Shown: piece by piece, positions 2,462-9,314 of the stretch | Numbering within the stretch: the stretch's first letter is position 1 | Layout: every line of letters begins with the position of its first letter | IMG/VR virus record: IMGVR_UViG_3300032401_000001 | Coordinates: 96,001-160,000 of that record | DNA: 64,000 nucleotides | From: a virus | Reading direction: 5' to 3' (one strand) | Position numbers and translations under genes: made by a program | The notes under the pieces: model-generated | What the model was told of the DNA's origin: nothing | The model's input: only the letters and a program-made list of their open reading frames with translations | The model's database searches: none

Positions 2462-2538
2462 GGGGCCATTCTACTACGCTTCCCACCGTCGTAAACGCGC
2501 TCTTTCTTTCGGTACAAGGACTTGAAAGGAAGGTGTCC

Positions 2539-3018
2539 ATGCGCGACGAGAAGCAGGGAATCCCGGAGTATGGCCCGGCTCTGATGGCCATCCTCATGGC
2601 CTACGAGTGCATCGCCGAACTCCCTCTCCAGGCGATGGCTCGCGCGTGCGGGTGCGACCTCGACGCGCTCAACGCGCGCGTCAACATCGCGTTCGACGGC
2701 GCCGTCATCTACATCGCGGTCGACGGGGCGACGTGGAGGTCGGCGATGAAGGACGGCGACAGTGGTCGCTGGCTCCTGACGCAGGAGCACCCGATCCCGC
2801 CCTCTGCGCGGGTGTGGTGCGACGTCTTCGGCAACGCCGAGGCGGCGGTGCGCGACACCCTGCGGGCGCTTGCCAACCGGCTGGCCAAGCCGGTGCCCTC
2901 CTACGAGGCCCAGCGGGGGGCCAACGAGGAGTACTACGAGAACGGCTGCGTCTCCGACTTCGCGCACGACCGCGCATGTCAGGAGATTGCAGGCAACGAG
3001 AAGCTGTCCGCTGCTTAG
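2539..3018 (+). CDS. hypothetical phage protein
   Basis: GAAGG SD before ATG 2539, strong GC3 bias. Confidence 0.7.
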   Translation: MRDEKQGIPEYGPALMAILMAYECIAELPLQAMARACGCDLDALNARVNIAFDGAVIYIAVDGATWRSAMKDGDSGRWLLTQEHPIPPSARVWCDVFGNAEAAVRDTLRALANRLAKPVPSYEAQRGANEEYYENGCVSDFAHDRACQEIAGNEKLSAA

Positions 3019-3019
3019 C

Positions 3020-3520
3020 AGCGACTCCAGACAGTTAGCAGGAGGCTGGTACCGACTTCCCGCCCGGTGACCTCCAGTCCGTCGACGACGGCTCCTGGGG
3101 TGAGACCTGGTTATTCGGTGCGTGGAGTAGGATTTCCCGATTCGAGGAGGACGCCATGAACCCTGGGCAGTGTGCATCTACTACGGTCTGGCCGGGCGTT
3201 GCCCGCCAACTGGAGTAGATGGTCCTGGTCGCGGGCAAGGCCCGGTCAGACCTCGATGGCGTACCGCAGCCGCCAGCCGGTGTGAAGCTGGGAAGCGGGA
3301 GTTCCACCTGGAAGGATAGGTTGAGTCGTGGCGTCGCCCATCCGACGCCGTTTGTTGTGAGAACCGGGGACTCGAGTCCGGTTCTCTTTAGGCGCAAAAC
3401 GGGGGCCTCTCTGCGGTACAAGGAAGTGTCCCGGAACCATCGACCCTCTCTCCCAAGGGTAATCGGTGGTCGGCCGGGCACTCGTCGTGCGTCTCTCAGC
3501 TGAACGCATGACGGCACACG
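3020..3520 (+). ncRNA. candidate structured RNA / long structured leader
   Basis: ~500 nt without a convincing gene; perfect helices 3175-3182/3214-3221, 3330-3336/3343-3349, 3359-3367/3378-3386. Confidence 0.35.
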
Positions 3521-3535
3521 CATCAGGAGGCTCCC

Positions 3536-3889
3536 ATGAAAGCTGCTCGGCTGTTCGGCGTCACCGTTCTCTACGTCATCGTCGCGGCCATCTATGTGCC
3601 GGTGGTCGCCCTCCACATCGCCAGCTGGCCGGTCCGCATGGCCGCCTGGATCCTCGTCGGTCGGAATGCCCAGGGTGGGCTCGCCGGGGTGTGCGTCGGT
3701 CTGGCGAACCTCCTGCGGCGCCTGGCGCGCACGCAGACCGCGCTGGCCTACGGGTACAACAACCTGCAGGCGTACGACGAGCACGTCGCTGAGGAGGCCG
3801 CCCGCATGAAGGCGGAGTTCGAGGCGGGCCTCGCGGCGGGTCGGGCACACGCGGCTGCGGCCGCCGGTGCGGTGCCCAGCGCTACGTAA
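3536..3889 (+). CDS. putative membrane protein
   Basis: AGGAGG SD; hydrophobic N-terminal segments. Confidence 0.7.
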   Translation: MKAARLFGVTVLYVIVAAIYVPVVALHIASWPVRMAAWILVGRNAQGGLAGVCVGLANLLRRLARTQTALAYGYNNLQAYDEHVAEEAARMKAEFEAGLAAGRAHAAAAAGAVPSAT

Positions 3890-4301: not shown

Positions 4302-4889
4302 ATGACACCTGACGACGAGAAGACTACGGATTCCCGGATCATCGAGAGCGCGGTGGCGGGTGCCGTAGCTGGATTGGCTGATGACGATGCGCCACTGGTG
4401 AAGGTCGAAGAGACGGCGTCACAGCGCTTCGCCAACTACTGCAAAGGCGTCGGGGGGCTCGTCAGCGGTATCACAGCGGTTGCGGCGGTGGTGCTCAGCA
4501 TCTTCGCATTGACGCGCGGTGAGCCGACAGCGAAGAAGGGCTACCAGGCCGTCGACGTGGTCGTCAAGCAACTCTCGACGGACATGCAGAAGGAACACGA
4601 CGACCGTATTCGAGTCGAGGCCCTGATGGGCAAAGACGTGACCTCAGTGCGCGAACAGCTGCAGTTGGTGGTGCAGCTGCTCTCGGTGCGCGCGACTCCG
4701 GCGGTGCGTCGACCCGTACGCTTGCCGCCGGTGACGAAGAGCAACCCGCCCACCGCCGCTCCTCCGGCACCGGCGTCACAGCCGGCGGAGATCCTGCAGA
4801 CCCTCACCTTGAAGTCGCAGGTGAAGATGACGAAGAAGGCACCGCCATCAGCGCGGCCACCGCTACGGAAGCTGCCGCCGCTTCCGTGA
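4302..4889 (+). CDS. membrane-anchored protein with coiled coil and Pro-rich tail
   Basis: One TM-like segment (GLVSGITAVAAVVLSIFAL) and a Pro-rich C-terminus. Confidence 0.65.
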   Translation: MTPDDEKTTDSRIIESAVAGAVAGLADDDAPLVKVEETASQRFANYCKGVGGLVSGITAVAAVVLSIFALTRGEPTAKKGYQAVDVVVKQLSTDMQKEHDDRIRVEALMGKDVTSVREQLQLVVQLLSVRATPAVRRPVRLPPVTKSNPPTAAPPAPASQPAEILQTLTLKSQVKMTKKAPPSARPPLRKLPPLP

Positions 4890-5099
4890 GTCGTGGTAGA
4901 GCGCGCGGACTCGGGCTACGGTCTCCTGGGGCTTGAGTTGCTTGCCCTGCGCTTGTGACCCTACGGACGTAGGGCCAGCGGTGCCTGGTGCCTTTGGTCG
5001 TGGCATAGTGGCCATGCTTTGATTCTGCCACAAGCTGAGATTCGCTGGTTTCCCTTTCCGTTCAGAACGTGCCAACGCGCGTCGTCGGTGCTACACCGA

Positions 5100-5996
5100 C
5101 AGAAGAGGCTACGGTAGAGGTGGTTGCGCCGCCGCAGTGAAACTCATCGCCCAGCTCGAGCCGGCTTCGCGGGCCTCCGGTGGTCTACCTCCTTCGTCCC
5201 AGCTCACCCGCCTCGAGCTGGGCGTATTCGCAACAACGAAGTGAACGGAATTTTGCTCGTCTGGTGTAGGGCTGTTCGTGAGTCGCGAATCACGAATCGC
5301 TGCCGCCGGCGTCACGCCGGCATTCTCGTGGGCACGAGAGTTCTCGGGTATGCGGTTGCTCGGACCAGGCCTGGTGCCGGTCCCCGCAACCAGCGATAGC
5401 AGACGAGGGTCGTCAGCCGGCTGCTGCGCCCGAAGAAGGGCTACGAATGCCCTTCTTCGCGCGCTGCCCCCCGGCTGTCGAACGTAGCAGACGAGAATGT
5501 TCTCTGCTGATGACCACCGCGTCCGGCGGTAAGTGCCCCCGGACGCCAGGTCATCAGCATGAAAACGTAGCAGACGAGAAGCGATGTGCGCGGCTGTCTA
5601 ACGTCCCGCCTCGGCTGCGCCGATCTGGGACGTCGACAGACCGTGCAACGAAGCAGACGAGCTTTGAGGCCTCAGTGCGCTGTCTGTCAGCGCTGGTAGT
5701 GCAACGCTACTCTGGTAGCTGCAGTGTGGCTCACCTCGTGATGTCGACCCGCCAGGCTGCGCTGCGCTTTCCTGGCGGTCGACATCCCTGCGGTGAAAGC
5801 CGAGCACCCACAGCCAACCGAGCTAAGTGAGGCTTCTACGAACCCTAGTACGCTGTCCCACAGCGTCGACGGCGTTACGGCCGTCTCTGGAGCTCCACTC
5901 GAGGTGACGAGGGCGCATGTCAGCTCCCAGTCGCCTCGACTGGGAACCGACATGCTTTCGGCGCCCGCCGAATGCCCAAGGCAACTGTAGGGTTCG
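5100..5996 (+). ncRNA. candidate large structured non-coding RNA (~900 nt)
   Basis: No credible gene; many long helices (5149-5160/5212-5223, 5431-5441/5449-5459, 5505-5515/5549-5559, 5740-5756/5771-5786, 5839-5847/5988-5996). Confidence 0.6.
5397..5661 (+). repeat. four copies of (T/A)AGCAGACGAG at 83-88 nt spacing
   Basis: Copies start at 5397, 5485, 5568 and 5651; the last three are preceded by AACG. Confidence 0.85.
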
Positions 5997-6032
5997 GGAG
6001 TATCATCGGCACAGCAGCGGAGGAGGTCGGCG

Positions 6033-6314
6033 ATGGCATACTTCGATCGCCGGGCGTGCCGGGACTACATGCACCTGGTGCTGTCACAGTTGGACGTGCC
6101 CCAGGTGCCGCTCCTATGGCACTATCTCGCGTACCGTGACGCGCGAATTCTCAGCTGCTTCGACGAAGATCAGCGCGCCAAGGTGCGTGGTCTCGTACAA
6201 GCCTGGGAGTGCCTCTTGCCGATGGAACAAGAGGACGTCATGGCGCATTTCGCTACTGTCCTCGAGGAGCTGGCGCGGCACCACGCCGCATTACCAAGTA
6301 AAGGACCTGGATGA
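6033..6314 (+). CDS. hypothetical protein
   Basis: GGAGGAGG SD; overlaps the next gene (ATGA). Confidence 0.7.
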   Translation: MAYFDRRACRDYMHLVLSQLDVPQVPLLWHYLAYRDARILSCFDEDQRAKVRGLVQAWECLLPMEQEDVMAHFATVLEELARHHAALPSKGPG

Positions 6315-6943
6315 GCGCCAAGAACCGCAAGCAGGCTGCCAAGGCCTTTGACCAGTACCCCACTGATCCGCGCTTGGCGCGTGCCGGCTTCGAGAAGCTC
6401 TGTCAGCGGTACGGCAGCCGCCTCACGGAGATGACGACGTTCCTGGAGCCCGGTGCGGGTCGTGGTCCCTTCTGCCAGGCGGCACGTCTCTACTTGCCCA
6501 ACGTGTGCCGCGTCGTGGGCGTCGAGCGGCATGCGCCGCCACCGGACCGCTTCAAGTACGAGCTCGTGACGCAGGACTTCCTGGCATGGCAGCCCAAGTT
6601 CCGGCCCGACCTCATCGCTACCAACCCGCCGTTCACGCCGGCGGCAGAGTTCATCCGGCACAGCCAGGAACTGCTCGCGCAGGGCGGGTTGATGTTCTAC
6701 CTCATGCGCGTCGGTATCCTCGGGTCCAAGAAGCGACGTGAGCTGTGGCAGCAGGTCAACTTGCTCGAGACCTGGATCATTCGACCGCGGCCGAGCTTCC
6801 AGTACGAGGGTGGCAGCGATGCTTCGGAGTACGCATTCTTCGTGATGGACGGGCGGCAACCCAAGGCGGGGTGCAGTCAGCAGGTGCGGCAGGACTGGGT
6901 GGACTGGGACGGGGATACAGATGAGTTGTTCGAGGAGGAGTGA
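6311..6943 (+). CDS. SAM-dependent N6-adenine-type DNA methyltransferase
   Basis: Motif I FLEPGAGRGPF and motif IV TNPPF. Confidence 0.8.
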   Translation: MSAKNRKQAAKAFDQYPTDPRLARAGFEKLCQRYGSRLTEMTTFLEPGAGRGPFCQAARLYLPNVCRVVGVERHAPPPDRFKYELVTQDFLAWQPKFRPDLIATNPPFTPAAEFIRHSQELLAQGGLMFYLMRVGILGSKKRRELWQQVNLLETWIIRPRPSFQYEGGSDASEYAFFVMDGRQPKAGCSQQVRQDWVDWDGDTDELFEEE

Positions 6944-7407
6944 TGGGACGCCTTCGCCACGGTCATACCCAGGGTGCGCGAATGACCGTTGAGTACCTGG
7001 CGTGGTGCAACATGATTCAGCGGTGTACGAACCCCAAGGTGCAGAGCTATGCTACGCACGGTGCTCGTGGGATCAAAGTTTGTGTGCGCTGGTTGACTGA
7101 TTTTCAGAACTTCCTGGCGGACATGGGACGGAAACCGCGTCCGAGTCATCGGTGGAGTCTTGAACGGAAGGACAACAACGGAGACTACGAACCTGGAAAT
7201 TGTTGCTGGGCAACTTCGAAAGCGCAGGGACGCAACAAGAGAGGTAATCGGCTATTCACCGTCTGGGGTCGAACTCAGTGCGCAGCTGCTTGGGCCGAAG
7301 AGTACGGAATGTCGAAGCAGACGCTGCGCGCACGCCTGCTCCGGGGTTGGTCGATGGAGCGGATTCTCACTACCCCAATTAAGTCGCCATTGCATCAAGC
7401 CTCTTGA
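6940..7407 (+). CDS. phage HNH-type homing endonuclease
   Basis: WCNMIQRC...YxxHGARGIKVC...SLERKDNNGDYEPGNCCWAT signature. Confidence 0.8.
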   Translation: MMGRLRHGHTQGARMTVEYLAWCNMIQRCTNPKVQSYATHGARGIKVCVRWLTDFQNFLADMGRKPRPSHRWSLERKDNNGDYEPGNCCWATSKAQGRNKRGNRLFTVWGRTQCAAAWAEEYGMSKQTLRARLLRGWSMERILTTPIKSPLHQAS

Positions 7408-7589: not shown

Positions 7590-7958
7590 ATGCCCGACAC
7601 GAACCTCTACGTGGGCAACCTGCCCTGGGACATCACCAAGGAAGAGCTGGCGGCGCGCTTTGCGCAGTTCGGCGAAGTCCGTGGGGTACGCATCATCACC
7701 GACAAGGAGACGAGCCGATCGCGCGGCTTCGGTTTCGTCGAGTTCGCGCAGGCGGCCGACGCCCAGGCGGCCCTGGTCGAAGATGGCCAGGACTTCGGGG
7801 GCCGGGCGTTGCGCGTGAATCTCGCCAACCGCCAGAGCGAAGATCGACCGCGCAGCGGTAACGGCAACGGGCAGCGGCCCAAGAGCAACAGTGGCGGCGG
7901 CAAGCCCCGCGGCCACGGCGGCGGGCGTCCGCGCACGGCGTACGGCGACGAGGGCTGA
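7590..7958 (+). CDS. RRM (RNP1/RNP2) RNA-binding protein with Gly/Arg-rich tail
   Basis: RNP2 LYVGNL and RNP1 RGFGFVEF. Confidence 0.92.
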   Translation: MPDTNLYVGNLPWDITKEELAARFAQFGEVRGVRIITDKETSRSRGFGFVEFAQAADAQAALVEDGQDFGGRALRVNLANRQSEDRPRSGNGNGQRPKSNSGGGKPRGHGGGRPRTAYGDEG

Positions 7959-8044
7959 TGCTACGCGTCGTTGGTTGGTGTATCGTAGGACCAGTGCTAC
8001 TGTTCTTCACCATGGTAGTTCACGTGATGGAGTTCTTCTGCTGA
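7958..8044 (+). CDS. possible 28 aa hydrophobic peptide
   Basis: TGATG coupling to the RRM gene; MLRVVGWCIVGPVLLFFTMVVHVMEFFC. Confidence 0.3.
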   Translation: MLRVVGWCIVGPVLLFFTMVVHVMEFFC

Positions 8045-8133
8045 TAGAGGCGCCCCACCGGGACCATCGGGGTATTCAACCGGACGTCGCCCACCGGCTA
8101 GTCACCGGCCGCTGCCTCGAAAGGGCGACACGA

Positions 8134-8469
8134 GGGCCTGAAACGGTTTCGACAGGGGTACAGAAGGCAGAGTAGCGTGCCGTGGTTGATCGGTGGGCCA
8201 CGTTAAAAGCCGATCAAAACCGAAAAGCGAACGACAACATCGTCCGCCAGCCCCTCCGCGCCGCGGCCTAGCCGAGGCGGGAGGAGCGGGGAAGCCCTCA
8301 GAGCTCCTGGCAACAGAAAGAGGGATGGTGGAGGCGCCGCAAGGCGCCCTGTAGCACCGGGTGAGGCTGGCCATACCGGTAACTACGCCAGCACGCCTCG
8401 CAAGAGGCTACGCACGTAGAAGCTCTACTGGAGTACTGCTGGACCCGGGTTCGACTCCCGGCAGGTCCA
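8134..8469 (+). ncRNA. ssrA: tmRNA, tag (A)ANDNIVRQPLRAAA
   Basis: GGGCCTG/CAGGTCC acceptor with G3.U70, GGTTTCGAC 5' motif, T-arm CCGGGTTCGACTCCCGG, tag frame 8227-8271. Confidence 0.95.
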
Positions 8470-8576
8470 ACTAAGCCCCGCCGGCGCGCGGTCAATCGTA
8501 TGGTAAACGCCCAGCGGCGCCGGCGGGGTGATACATTCGCTGGGCACCTCAAACTCAACATGACAGGAGCACGATC

Positions 8577-9314
8577 ATGAAGGCACAGCGGCTGAACCAG
8601 GTCATCTCCGTCGAGAAGGGCATCCGGAACAAGACCACGGAGCGCATCACGGAGCTGTATCACACCGTGCAGAAGCCGGCGCTCTTCGACGGCTTCAACA
8701 AGAAGTACCGCCCACTCGCCGAGGACGGCGAGCAGTTCCCGCCCGAGGACAAGCGGGTGCAGGTGAAGGGCATCGACGTCGTCAAGGAGCTGTTCGCGTG
8801 CATGCGCGAACTCTTCGACGTGACCCTCATCAAGGACAGCGCCAACTGCATGGCGAAGGCCGACGTGGTGGTAGGCGACAAGGTCGTCCTCAAGGACTGC
8901 CCGGCCACCTACCTGCTGTTCCTCGAGAAGCAGCTGACGGACCTCCACACCGCGATGTCGAAGATGCCGGTGCTCGACCCGGCCGAGGAGTGGGAGTTCG
9001 ACAAGAACGCGTCGCTGTACCGGACGCAGCCCGTCGAGACCGGCCGCACCAAGAAGGTGCAGAAGTCCCTGGTGCTGCTGGCGCCGACCGACAAGCACCC
9101 GGGACAGGCGCAGCTCATCACCGAGGACATGACGATCGGCTACTGGGGCACCGTGAAGTTCTCGGGGGCGATGGCACTGCCCGACAAGGAGCGGCTGCTC
9201 ATCCGCATCGAGAAGCTGCACCATGCGGTGAAGTTCGCCCGTGACGAAGCGAACACCGCCGGGGTGATCGACCGCAGCACCGAAGCGGTCTTCGACTACT
9301 TGACCAGCGCCTAG
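8577..9314 (+). CDS. conserved hypothetical protein (LNQVISVEKG...YLLFLEKQL...KFSGA family)
   Basis: 245 aa, AGGAG SD, very high GC3; resembles a widespread uncharacterised bacterial/phage family. Confidence 0.85.
   Translation: MKAQRLNQVISVEKGIRNKTTERITELYHTVQKPALFDGFNKKYRPLAEDGEQFPPEDKRVQVKGIDVVKELFACMRELFDVTLIKDSANCMAKADVVVGDKVVLKDCPATYLLFLEKQLTDLHTAMSKMPVLDPAEEWEFDKNASLYRTQPVETGRTKKVQKSLVLLAPTDKHPGQAQLITEDMTIGYWGTVKFSGAMALPDKERLLIRIEKLHHAVKFARDEANTAGVIDRSTEAVFDYLTSA

Follow-up and report, generated by a model that had tools for sequence, protein, structure and literature searches.

A conserved array of short motifs and unrelated hairpins lies within a large non-coding, probably RNA-encoding element of an uncultured phage genome

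Results

A short motif alternating with unrelated hairpins inside a non-coding gap

The window analysed here is a stretch of 64,000 nucleotides that comprises bases 96,001-160,000 of the 197,792-bp viral genome IMGVR_UViG_3300032401_000001, in which the final 140 bases are a copy of the first 140, pointing to a circular assembly. An earlier note, made from the letters of the window, had described an array in which a constant motif, (T/A)AGCAGACGAG, is separated by long hairpins of unrelated sequence. We found the motif exactly at positions 5397, 5485, 5568 and 5651 (periods of 88, 83 and 83), its upstream complement GCTCGTCTG exactly at 5255-5263, and all of the stem halves that the note had quoted. 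The 10-mer AGCAGACGAG occurs four times in the entire 197,792-bp genome, always in the array, compared to an expectation of ~0.2 per strand, and the 15-mer AACGWAGCAGACGAG is absent from the rest of the genome. The proposal of one hairpin per spacer was also borne out, with folding energies of -50.9 (z -7.7), -44.5 (z -8.1) and -41.6 (z -5.3) for the spacers designated H1, H2 and H3, respectively; for each of the three, none of 200 shuffled sequences folded as well. These hairpins are 64-78 nt long, have stems of 24-27 bp without U-tracts, are individually conserved, and are unrelated to one another in sequence, each being present as a single copy in the genome. Tandem Repeats Finder detected no ordinary tandem repeat at the array.

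While these features are real, the array does not stand alone: it forms the middle of a 1,143-nt gap (4890-6032) between a 201-amino-acid (aa) orphan gene upstream and a 93-aa orphan gene downstream. This gap is non-coding, carries hairpins along its full length and has a flat profile of GC content by codon position; the region has a GC content of 63% and is not AT-rich. The parts of the element are listed in Table 1, and its 5' domain begins ~40 nt past the stop codon (4887-4889) of the upstream gene.

The array is conserved and modular among related phages

Seven related lineages were recovered by a metagenome pattern scan combined with look-ups of homologues of the two flanking proteins. 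They comprise L034/L037/L062 (~91% nucleotide identity to the window, on 13 contigs), L038, L039, L040 and L041 (80, 62, 65 and 51% amino-acid identity to the window, respectively), the partial L042, and L043/L044 (59% identity of the 93-aa protein). Wherever a contig extends far enough the gene order is constant, with the upstream gene followed by a gap of 0.6-1.24 kb, the 93-aa gene and a gene for an RRM_1 protein. With the truncated L042 set aside, all lineages carry two to four copies of AGCAGACGAG, 74-88 nt apart, and the variation in repeat number raised by the earlier note is therefore present. An inverted 9-mer, the anti-motif CTCGTCTGG, stands upstream in every lineage, 120-142 nt before the first motif copy where that copy is present. 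The motif and the anti-motif are conserved islands whose flanks diverge, and each spacer of the relatives folds into a hairpin. This conservation of motif, spacing, hairpins and upstream complement in six further lineages is the strongest evidence that the array is not a product of chance; the repeated motif and its unrelated hairpins are real and are conserved in related uncultured phages.

When the lineages were compared, the array was found to be built from cassettes, in the order H1-H2-H3-D4 in the window, H1-H2-D4 in L038, H1-H3-D4 in L039 and H1-H3 in L040, with H1 only in L034 and L043. L041 has at least two hairpins, the first of which may be H1, and its contig ends in an apparent third motif. 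Differences in copy number within the array always amount to exactly one hairpin plus one motif, with each indel boundary at a motif copy, and the other indels (D4 and a 177-nt module) are likewise bounded by short direct repeats. From this comparison, the universal core consists of the anti-motif, hairpins a-d, a motif, H1 and a motif. The internal motif copies are exact in five of five cases, even beside stems that have been fully replaced, and so are not neutral scars.

The 177-nt module has three hairpins and is kept in L034rc (3381-3557), L038, L039 and L040, which are the other full-length relatives; it has been lost at position 5043 of the window, where the deletion was placed between the direct repeats CAAGCTGAG and CAAGCTCAG.

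Table 1. Coordinates of the element and of two downstream genes in the window
Feature	Position	Strand	Remarks
5' domain of the element	4930-5042	+	Covarying hairpins; kept in all relatives, including the distant L043
Degenerate motif-like segment m0, CAACGAAGUGAACGGA	5234-5249	+	Conserved in the window, L034, L038, L039, L040 and L041
Anti-motif GCUCGUCUG	5255-5263	+	Reverse complement of CAGACGAG(C); CTCGTCTGG invariant in 7 lineages
Hairpin a, GUUCGUGA / UCACGAAU	5274-5297	+	Seen in fold and consensus fold
UCGCUGC, second partial motif complement	5297-5303	+	Predicted partner is motif copy 1 (GCAG-A-CGA, bulged A)
Hairpin b, GCCGGCG-UCA-CGCCGGC	5305-5321	+	Nearly invariant; two L038 changes give G.U on the + strand only
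Hairpin c, UUCUCGUG-GGCA-CACGAGAG	5322-5341	+	3' arm has an alternative partner
Hairpin d, directly 5' of motif copy 1	5352-5394	+	Helix 6; 5 pairs changed on both sides
Motif copy 1, UAGCAGACGAG	5397-5407	+	Exact sequence match; kept in relatives
Hairpin H1	5408-5485	+	z -7.7; the sole cassette common to every lineage
Motif copy 2, AACGUAGCAGACGAG	5481-5495	+	
Hairpin H2	5496-5568	+	z -8.1; optional cassette, in the window and L038 only
Motif copy 3, AACGUAGCAGACGAG	5564-5578	+	
Hairpin H3	5579-5651	+	z -5.3; optional cassette, in the window, L039 and L040
Motif copy 4, AACGAAGCAGACGAG	5647-5661	+	Last copy; with C5662 makes 9 bp to the anti-motif
Domain D4, optional multi-hairpin module	5662-5838	+	Shared by the window, L038 and L039; flanked by the direct repeat GAGGC(C)U
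3' closed domain	5839-5996	+	Covarying hairpins inside a long-range helix; absent in L043
Orphan 93-aa gene	6033-6314	+	Shine-Dalgarno sequence GGAGGAG at 6020-6026; always directly downstream of the element
RRM_1 protein gene, Gly/Arg-rich tail	7590-7958	+	Co-conserved with the element, 73-93% identity; candidate partner only

The element is non-coding, constrained and maintained by compensatory changes

Substitutions in the gap are spread evenly over the three codon positions (24/27/21, 19/26/31 and 44/66/43), compared to a strong third-position excess in the flanking genes, and the 83/84-nt indels between relatives disrupt any reading frame. A coding reading of the gap was ruled out by this lack of codon periodicity. 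At the same time, the identity of the gap to L038 is 92.8%, compared to 79.8 and 85.5% for the flanking genes, and its identity to L039 is 85.4%, compared to 69.4 and 79.8%. These comparisons show that the gap is non-coding and is under stronger nucleotide-level constraint than the neighbouring genes.

The whole gap contains 236 strand-symmetric pairs, and 37 of these have undergone compensatory changes. The core was aligned from the anti-motif to motif copy 2 in seven lineages and folded with RNAalifold; its consensus has 73 pairs that are 92% paired, and 21 of them are changed on both sides, compared to 7.7±2.0 in shuffled alignments (0 of 500 reached this number) and 2-5 in slid controls. 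In the 3' domain (5839-5996), 11 of the 55 pairs are compensatory, and the domain is enclosed by a long-range helix formed by CGAACCCUA (5839-5847) and UAGGGUUCG (5988-5996), which is invariant in five sequences and is lengthened by U.G pairs on the + strand. Fourteen pairs of H1 (helices 7 and 8) are changed on both sides; its apical loop, U(A/G)CGAAU, is kept in six of seven lineages, and persists in L040 and L043 while the stems beneath it are entirely replaced. H2 shows a compensatory exchange of A-U for G-C between the window and L038, and H3 retains the apical UCGGC-UGC-GCCGA with fully replaced lower stems in which pairing is kept. These alignments show that compensatory substitutions keep the helices paired, with every spacer hairpin among them. 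The earlier note had held that relatives keeping the motif without hairpin covariation would speak against an RNA-level role; the relatives keep both. Compensatory helices together with the lack of a coding signal, the generic marks of a structured non-coding RNA, were thus both found.

Two of the smaller hairpins differ in their behaviour among folds or lineages. In place of hairpin d, L040, L041 and L043 have different hairpins. The 3' arm of hairpin c has an alternative partner in the direct repeat UUCUCGGG at 5343-5350, and the minimum free energy (MFE) fold takes one pairing while the consensus fold takes the other. Between 5323 and 5350, the repeats UUCUCGUG and UUCUCGGG flank CACGAGAG, which gives two mutually exclusive hairpins with the look of an attenuator.

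Predicted long-range pairing between motif copies and upstream complements

The earlier note had suggested that the upstream complement could pair with a motif copy. This complement is conserved in every lineage, and both thermodynamic and consensus folds pair it with the motif. When the fold is confined to the segment from the anti-motif to the last motif copy, these two are predicted to pair in five of five sequences, with a margin of 3-12 kcal/mol over the other copies, and in whole-gap folds the same pairing is predicted in three of five. The RNAalifold consensus of the seven lineages places the anti-motif and the last motif in helix 1 (5256-5263 with 5654-5661) and, nested inside it, UCGCUGC (5297-5303) and motif copy 1 (5399-5406) in helix 3. 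Helix 3 is 100% paired in the seven sequences, a C-to-U change in L043 giving U.G. In addition, the base 3' of the last copy can pair with the base 5' of the anti-motif in five of five sequences (C-G, U.G, U.G, C-G and U-A); in L040, a G-to-A change before the anti-motif is matched by a U after the last copy.

The degenerate segment m0 has CAACGAAG in common with motif copy 4 and is able to pair locally with the 5' half of the anti-motif, as seen in the consensus fold of one alignment block (block d). Outside the window, AACGAAGTGAACCG at genome position 50197 matches 13 of 14 bases of m0 (5235-5248); this site is apparently coding and the match may be due to chance. Two further candidate contacts were rejected. 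For a kissing interaction of the H1 loop with AUUCGCA (5227-5233), conservation fails in L040 and L043; another complement, at 5082-5095, is shared by close relatives only and sits within its own hairpin.

Strand of the putative RNA

The balance of the evidence favours the + strand, at roughly two in three. Among the strand-symmetric pairs, G.U combinations fill 27 cells and A.C combinations 13, and the + strand has 78 internal G.U pairs compared to 59 for the - strand. The L043 sequence folds better as the + strand by 36 kcal/mol, the flanking genes are all on the + strand, and several wobble changes fit this strand, namely those in hairpin b of L038, helix 3 of L043 and motif 3 of L039, and the U.G extension of the 3' closing helix. 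Two observations point the other way: H1 and H2 fold better on the - strand by 1-11 kcal/mol, and restricting the folds to Watson-Crick pairs leaves unpaired positions that are rich in T on the + strand and so in A on the - strand. RNA loops are typically A-rich.

Genes around the element

Downstream of the 93-aa gene, and all on the + strand, lie a DNA methyltransferase-like gene, an HNH endonuclease gene, the RRM_1 protein gene, a transfer-messenger RNA (tmRNA), a gene for a DUF7873 protein and 39 transfer RNAs (tRNAs), the tmRNA and the tRNA island being located 2.5-9 kb downstream of the element. An invariant PLLWHYLAY motif and conserved cysteines mark the 93-aa protein, which gave no lead in Pfam, PHROG or the ESM Atlas. 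The neighbouring RRM gene, to which the earlier note had pointed, is real; its product has canonical RNP1 (RGFGFVEF) and RNP2 (LYVGNL) motifs and a tail ending in AYGDEG, and its identity among the relatives is far above that of the neighbouring proteins. The 184-aa open reading frame (ORF) that starts at TTG 7404 is probably an over-extended version of this gene. A Pfam scan of ten large ORFs gave no indication of the phage type or the host.

The HNH gene (6940-7407) encodes a free-standing homing endonuclease (phrog_3377, E 2e-48) and is found in the window only; at its position the relatives have ~65-190 nt instead. Compared to the 91%-identical relative, two further stretches occur in the window only, one of 89 nt just before the tmRNA (8044-8133) and one of gene size (918 nt, 2478-3396).

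The INPHARED phage collection gave no match to the DNA and none to the upstream protein, and the downstream methyltransferase matched distant phages only. A scan of IMG/VR for two motif copies returned 24 loci, all of them ordinary coding or tandem repeats, and single-protein locus searches in IMG/VR returned no related loci. Scanning IMG/VR and GTDB genomes for the hairpin b pattern gave chance GC palindromes only, with no prophage or host.

Comparison with known RNA and repeat systems

A cmscan search with the 4,227 families of Rfam 15 gave no match at the gathering threshold in the window, and none at E≤5 on either strand of 4700-6200 or of the L039 gap; permissive thresholds yielded chance microRNA-like hits only. 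The element thus matches no catalogued RNA family. Its closest resemblance in position and scale is to GOLLD and ROOL, two large ornate RNAs that phages and prophages encode near tRNA islands (PMC12286853). Like these, the element is non-coding, spans several hundred to >1,000 nt with many covarying helices, has a conserved and a variable part, and is phage-encoded near a tRNA island (here 39 tRNAs plus a tmRNA in a 198-kb viral record). It differs in that their covariance models do not match it, in that an invariant strand is reused between optional hairpin cassettes, and in that an RRM protein gene is co-conserved with it, GOLLD and ROOL both being regarded as homo-oligomeric assemblies of RNA only. 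The Gut-1 (RF01706; PMC2864571) and REP/BIME elements are likewise intergenic rows of stable hairpins with a constant short linker, some of them in phages. Here, however, there is no match to RF01706, the locus occurs once in the genome and is orthologous among the relatives, unlike a dispersed family, the complement of the linker is conserved upstream, and the hairpins measure 64-78 nt.

The earlier note had also likened the array to an inversion of CRISPR logic. Constant elements do alternate with variable ones and the number of units does vary, but the likeness is a visual analogy only. The constant element is 10-15 nt long and unstructured, whereas CRISPR repeats are ~23-50 nt; the apparent spacers are structured, orthologous modules that evolve slowly and covary between phages and are not acquired; and a scan of the neighbouring ORFs turned up no cas family. 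The comparison with type III antitoxin arrays likewise proved a misfit. A repeated RNA unit that might be processed, in a phage-related context, recalls ToxI, but the units here are unrelated and form no tandem repeats, whereas ToxI consists of near-identical tandem repeats of ~34-36 nt beside the gene of a ToxN-family endoribonuclease, and the ten neighbouring ORFs that were scanned gave neither a ToxN-like nor another toxin family. Iteron origins, too, combine direct copies of a short site with an inverted one, but the array differs from them in its variable phasing (74-88 bp), in the absence of an AT-rich unwinding element, in having spacers selected for pairing, in the absence of an initiator among the neighbouring ORFs scanned, and in the GC-skew minimum lying elsewhere. 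Membership in the CRISPR, ToxI-type and iteron classes therefore fails on their defining features. Finally, CsrB/RsmZ sponges share with the array many hairpins and a repeated short motif, and hence possible multivalent protein binding; here the motif lies between the hairpins and not in their loops, is present in two to four copies, and in two of these is predicted to be paired.

Discussion

We propose that the array serves as the modular central domain of a large structured phage RNA that had not been catalogued before, probably read from the + strand, a reading which we put at slightly better than even (about 55%). The RNA would be ~1.1 kb long in the window and 0.6-1.24 kb in the relatives, and it would most likely be read with, or just ahead of, a phage RNA module made up of the 93-aa gene, the RRM protein gene, the tmRNA and the tRNA island. 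The invariant motif would serve as a reused single strand: the first copy may pair with UCGCUGC (5297-5303) and the last with CUCGUCUG (5256-5263), these two pairings closing two nested multi-helix junctions, and the internal copies would be linkers beside the optional hairpin arms H2 and H3. A single anti-motif would then have to stay complementary to two to four interchangeable copies, which a sequence-specific factor, for example the product of the adjacent RRM gene, may read as well; one-to-many complementarity and reading by a protein would each be enough to hold the motif constant while all the other helices covary. Copy number would shift by recombination between motif copies, which takes one hairpin plus one motif out or in. 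By position and scale, such an element resembles the large ornate phage RNAs beside tRNA islands.

Several observations weigh against this proposal. Helices 1 and 3 never vary while the other helices covary freely, so the pairing of these two is without covariation support, and a DNA-binding protein would equally give rise to a conserved motif with an inverted copy. MFE folds of the whole gap place the anti-motif elsewhere in two of five sequences. The sample consists of seven lineages that are related, several of them closely, and the shuffle controls consequently overstate the significance. A promoter search of the region found no sigma-70-like site, and terminator-like sites were found only at the 4839-5016 edge, none of them bounding the array. 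In 17 other viral contigs with RRM homologues, there were no motif-hairpin arrays nearby and tRNAs were rare, which makes the link to the RRM gene a lineage-specific co-conservation and not a general rule.

An action of the motif at the DNA level is one way to read its invariance. It would then be a putative binding site for a phage protein, as in the iterons of an origin, operators or a packaging site, with the 93-aa product as the candidate binder. There are two to four direct copies plus inverted copies at 5256-5265 and, in degenerate form, at 5297-5303; motif and inverted copy are invariant islands without covariation, the copies lie ~8 helical turns apart in the window, and the 93-aa gene always follows the region, starting in L043 ~65 nt past the last copy. 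The strict helical phasing on which the iteron alternative of the earlier note had leaned is lost among the relatives, where the spacings are 74, 79, 81, 83, 84, 86, 87 and 88 bp. The GC-rich composition of the region, the lack of a replication initiator among the ten ORFs scanned and the lack of a DNA-binding family signal in the 93-aa protein also speak against it, as does the genome GC-skew minimum, ~17 kb away; a replication origin at the array was rejected on this ground, the minimum being at ~84 kb and not at 101.4 kb. Above all, a DNA-level role leaves unexplained the compensatory pairing of every spacer and of the 1-kb region, and the long-range closing helix. We consider it unlikely. 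Very unlikely, in our view, is that the hairpins are generic stability or termination elements or by-products of recombination, such as REP/BIME- or Gut-1-like clusters or cassette scars, with the motif as mere microhomology that unequal crossing-over has left behind. Indels do always end at short direct repeats (the motif, CAAGCTGAG/CAAGCTCAG or GAGGC(C)T), and hairpin b is like a canonical terminator hairpin elsewhere in the genome. Yet the array hairpins are single-copy, lack U-tracts and covary as orthologues among the lineages, conservation of the internal motif copies is perfect, that of the region exceeds that of its flanking genes, and Gut-1 is not matched. A miniature inverted-repeat transposable element or other dispersed repeat was rejected because the genome holds no further copies.

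Rather doubtful, but less so, is that the array is processed into small RNAs or acts as a multivalent sponge or scaffold, as the earlier note had also suggested. Cleavage near each AACGWAGCAGACGAG, or by RNase III at the stems, would release hairpin RNAs of ~70 nt, or the motif would titrate or assemble an RNA-binding protein, the candidate being the RRM/RGG protein. All motif copies are under selection, internal copies among them, the 24-27 bp stems would suit RNase III in length, the RRM protein with its canonical RNP1 and RNP2 is co-conserved and unusually well conserved (73-93%), and a second non-coding region of the genome has the related AACGAAGUGG recurring between hairpins. Some lineages, however, have two copies only, both of which are predicted to be paired in the consensus fold (L034), leaving little for a sponge; other phage RRM genes occur without such arrays; and the hairpins are part of a wider conserved fold that has long-range helices, which favours a single large RNA over released units.

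A bolder and quite tentative reading would see in the locus a new class of large, modular RNAs of phages, which act through one-to-many pairing of strands. The anti-motif and the second partial complement would dock with any of two to four identical strands, and this could allow register switching during transcription, variable display of hairpin arms or multimerisation in trans, maybe as a ribonucleoprotein with the RRM/RGG protein in a translation and RNA toolkit that includes the tmRNA, the tRNAs and Y-like RNAs. Large, elaborately folded phage RNAs near tRNA islands such as GOLLD and ROOL are among the least understood RNAs, with few classes known, and the locus would add a distinct one. 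It offers a modular grammar made up of an invariant strand, optional hairpin cassettes and a conserved complement, its natural copy-number variants are ready-made deletion mutants, and the co-conserved RRM protein is a testable partner. The locus also suggests that arrays with a repeat-spacer appearance can be structural RNA domains and not elements of immunity or replication.

Outside the window, a second hairpin-rich non-coding region of ~830 nt lies between convergent genes at genome bases 7836-8667 (L080, 1337-2168) and has no Rfam match. The motif-like sequence AACGAAGUGG occurs in it at 8040, 8152 and 8206, and CAACGAAGUAGAC occurs at 8421. This region also has two copies of a hairpin similar to hairpin b, one of which is identical to 5302-5325 of the window at 22 of 24 positions, while the other, at 7892-7908, is a canonical terminator with a U-tract.

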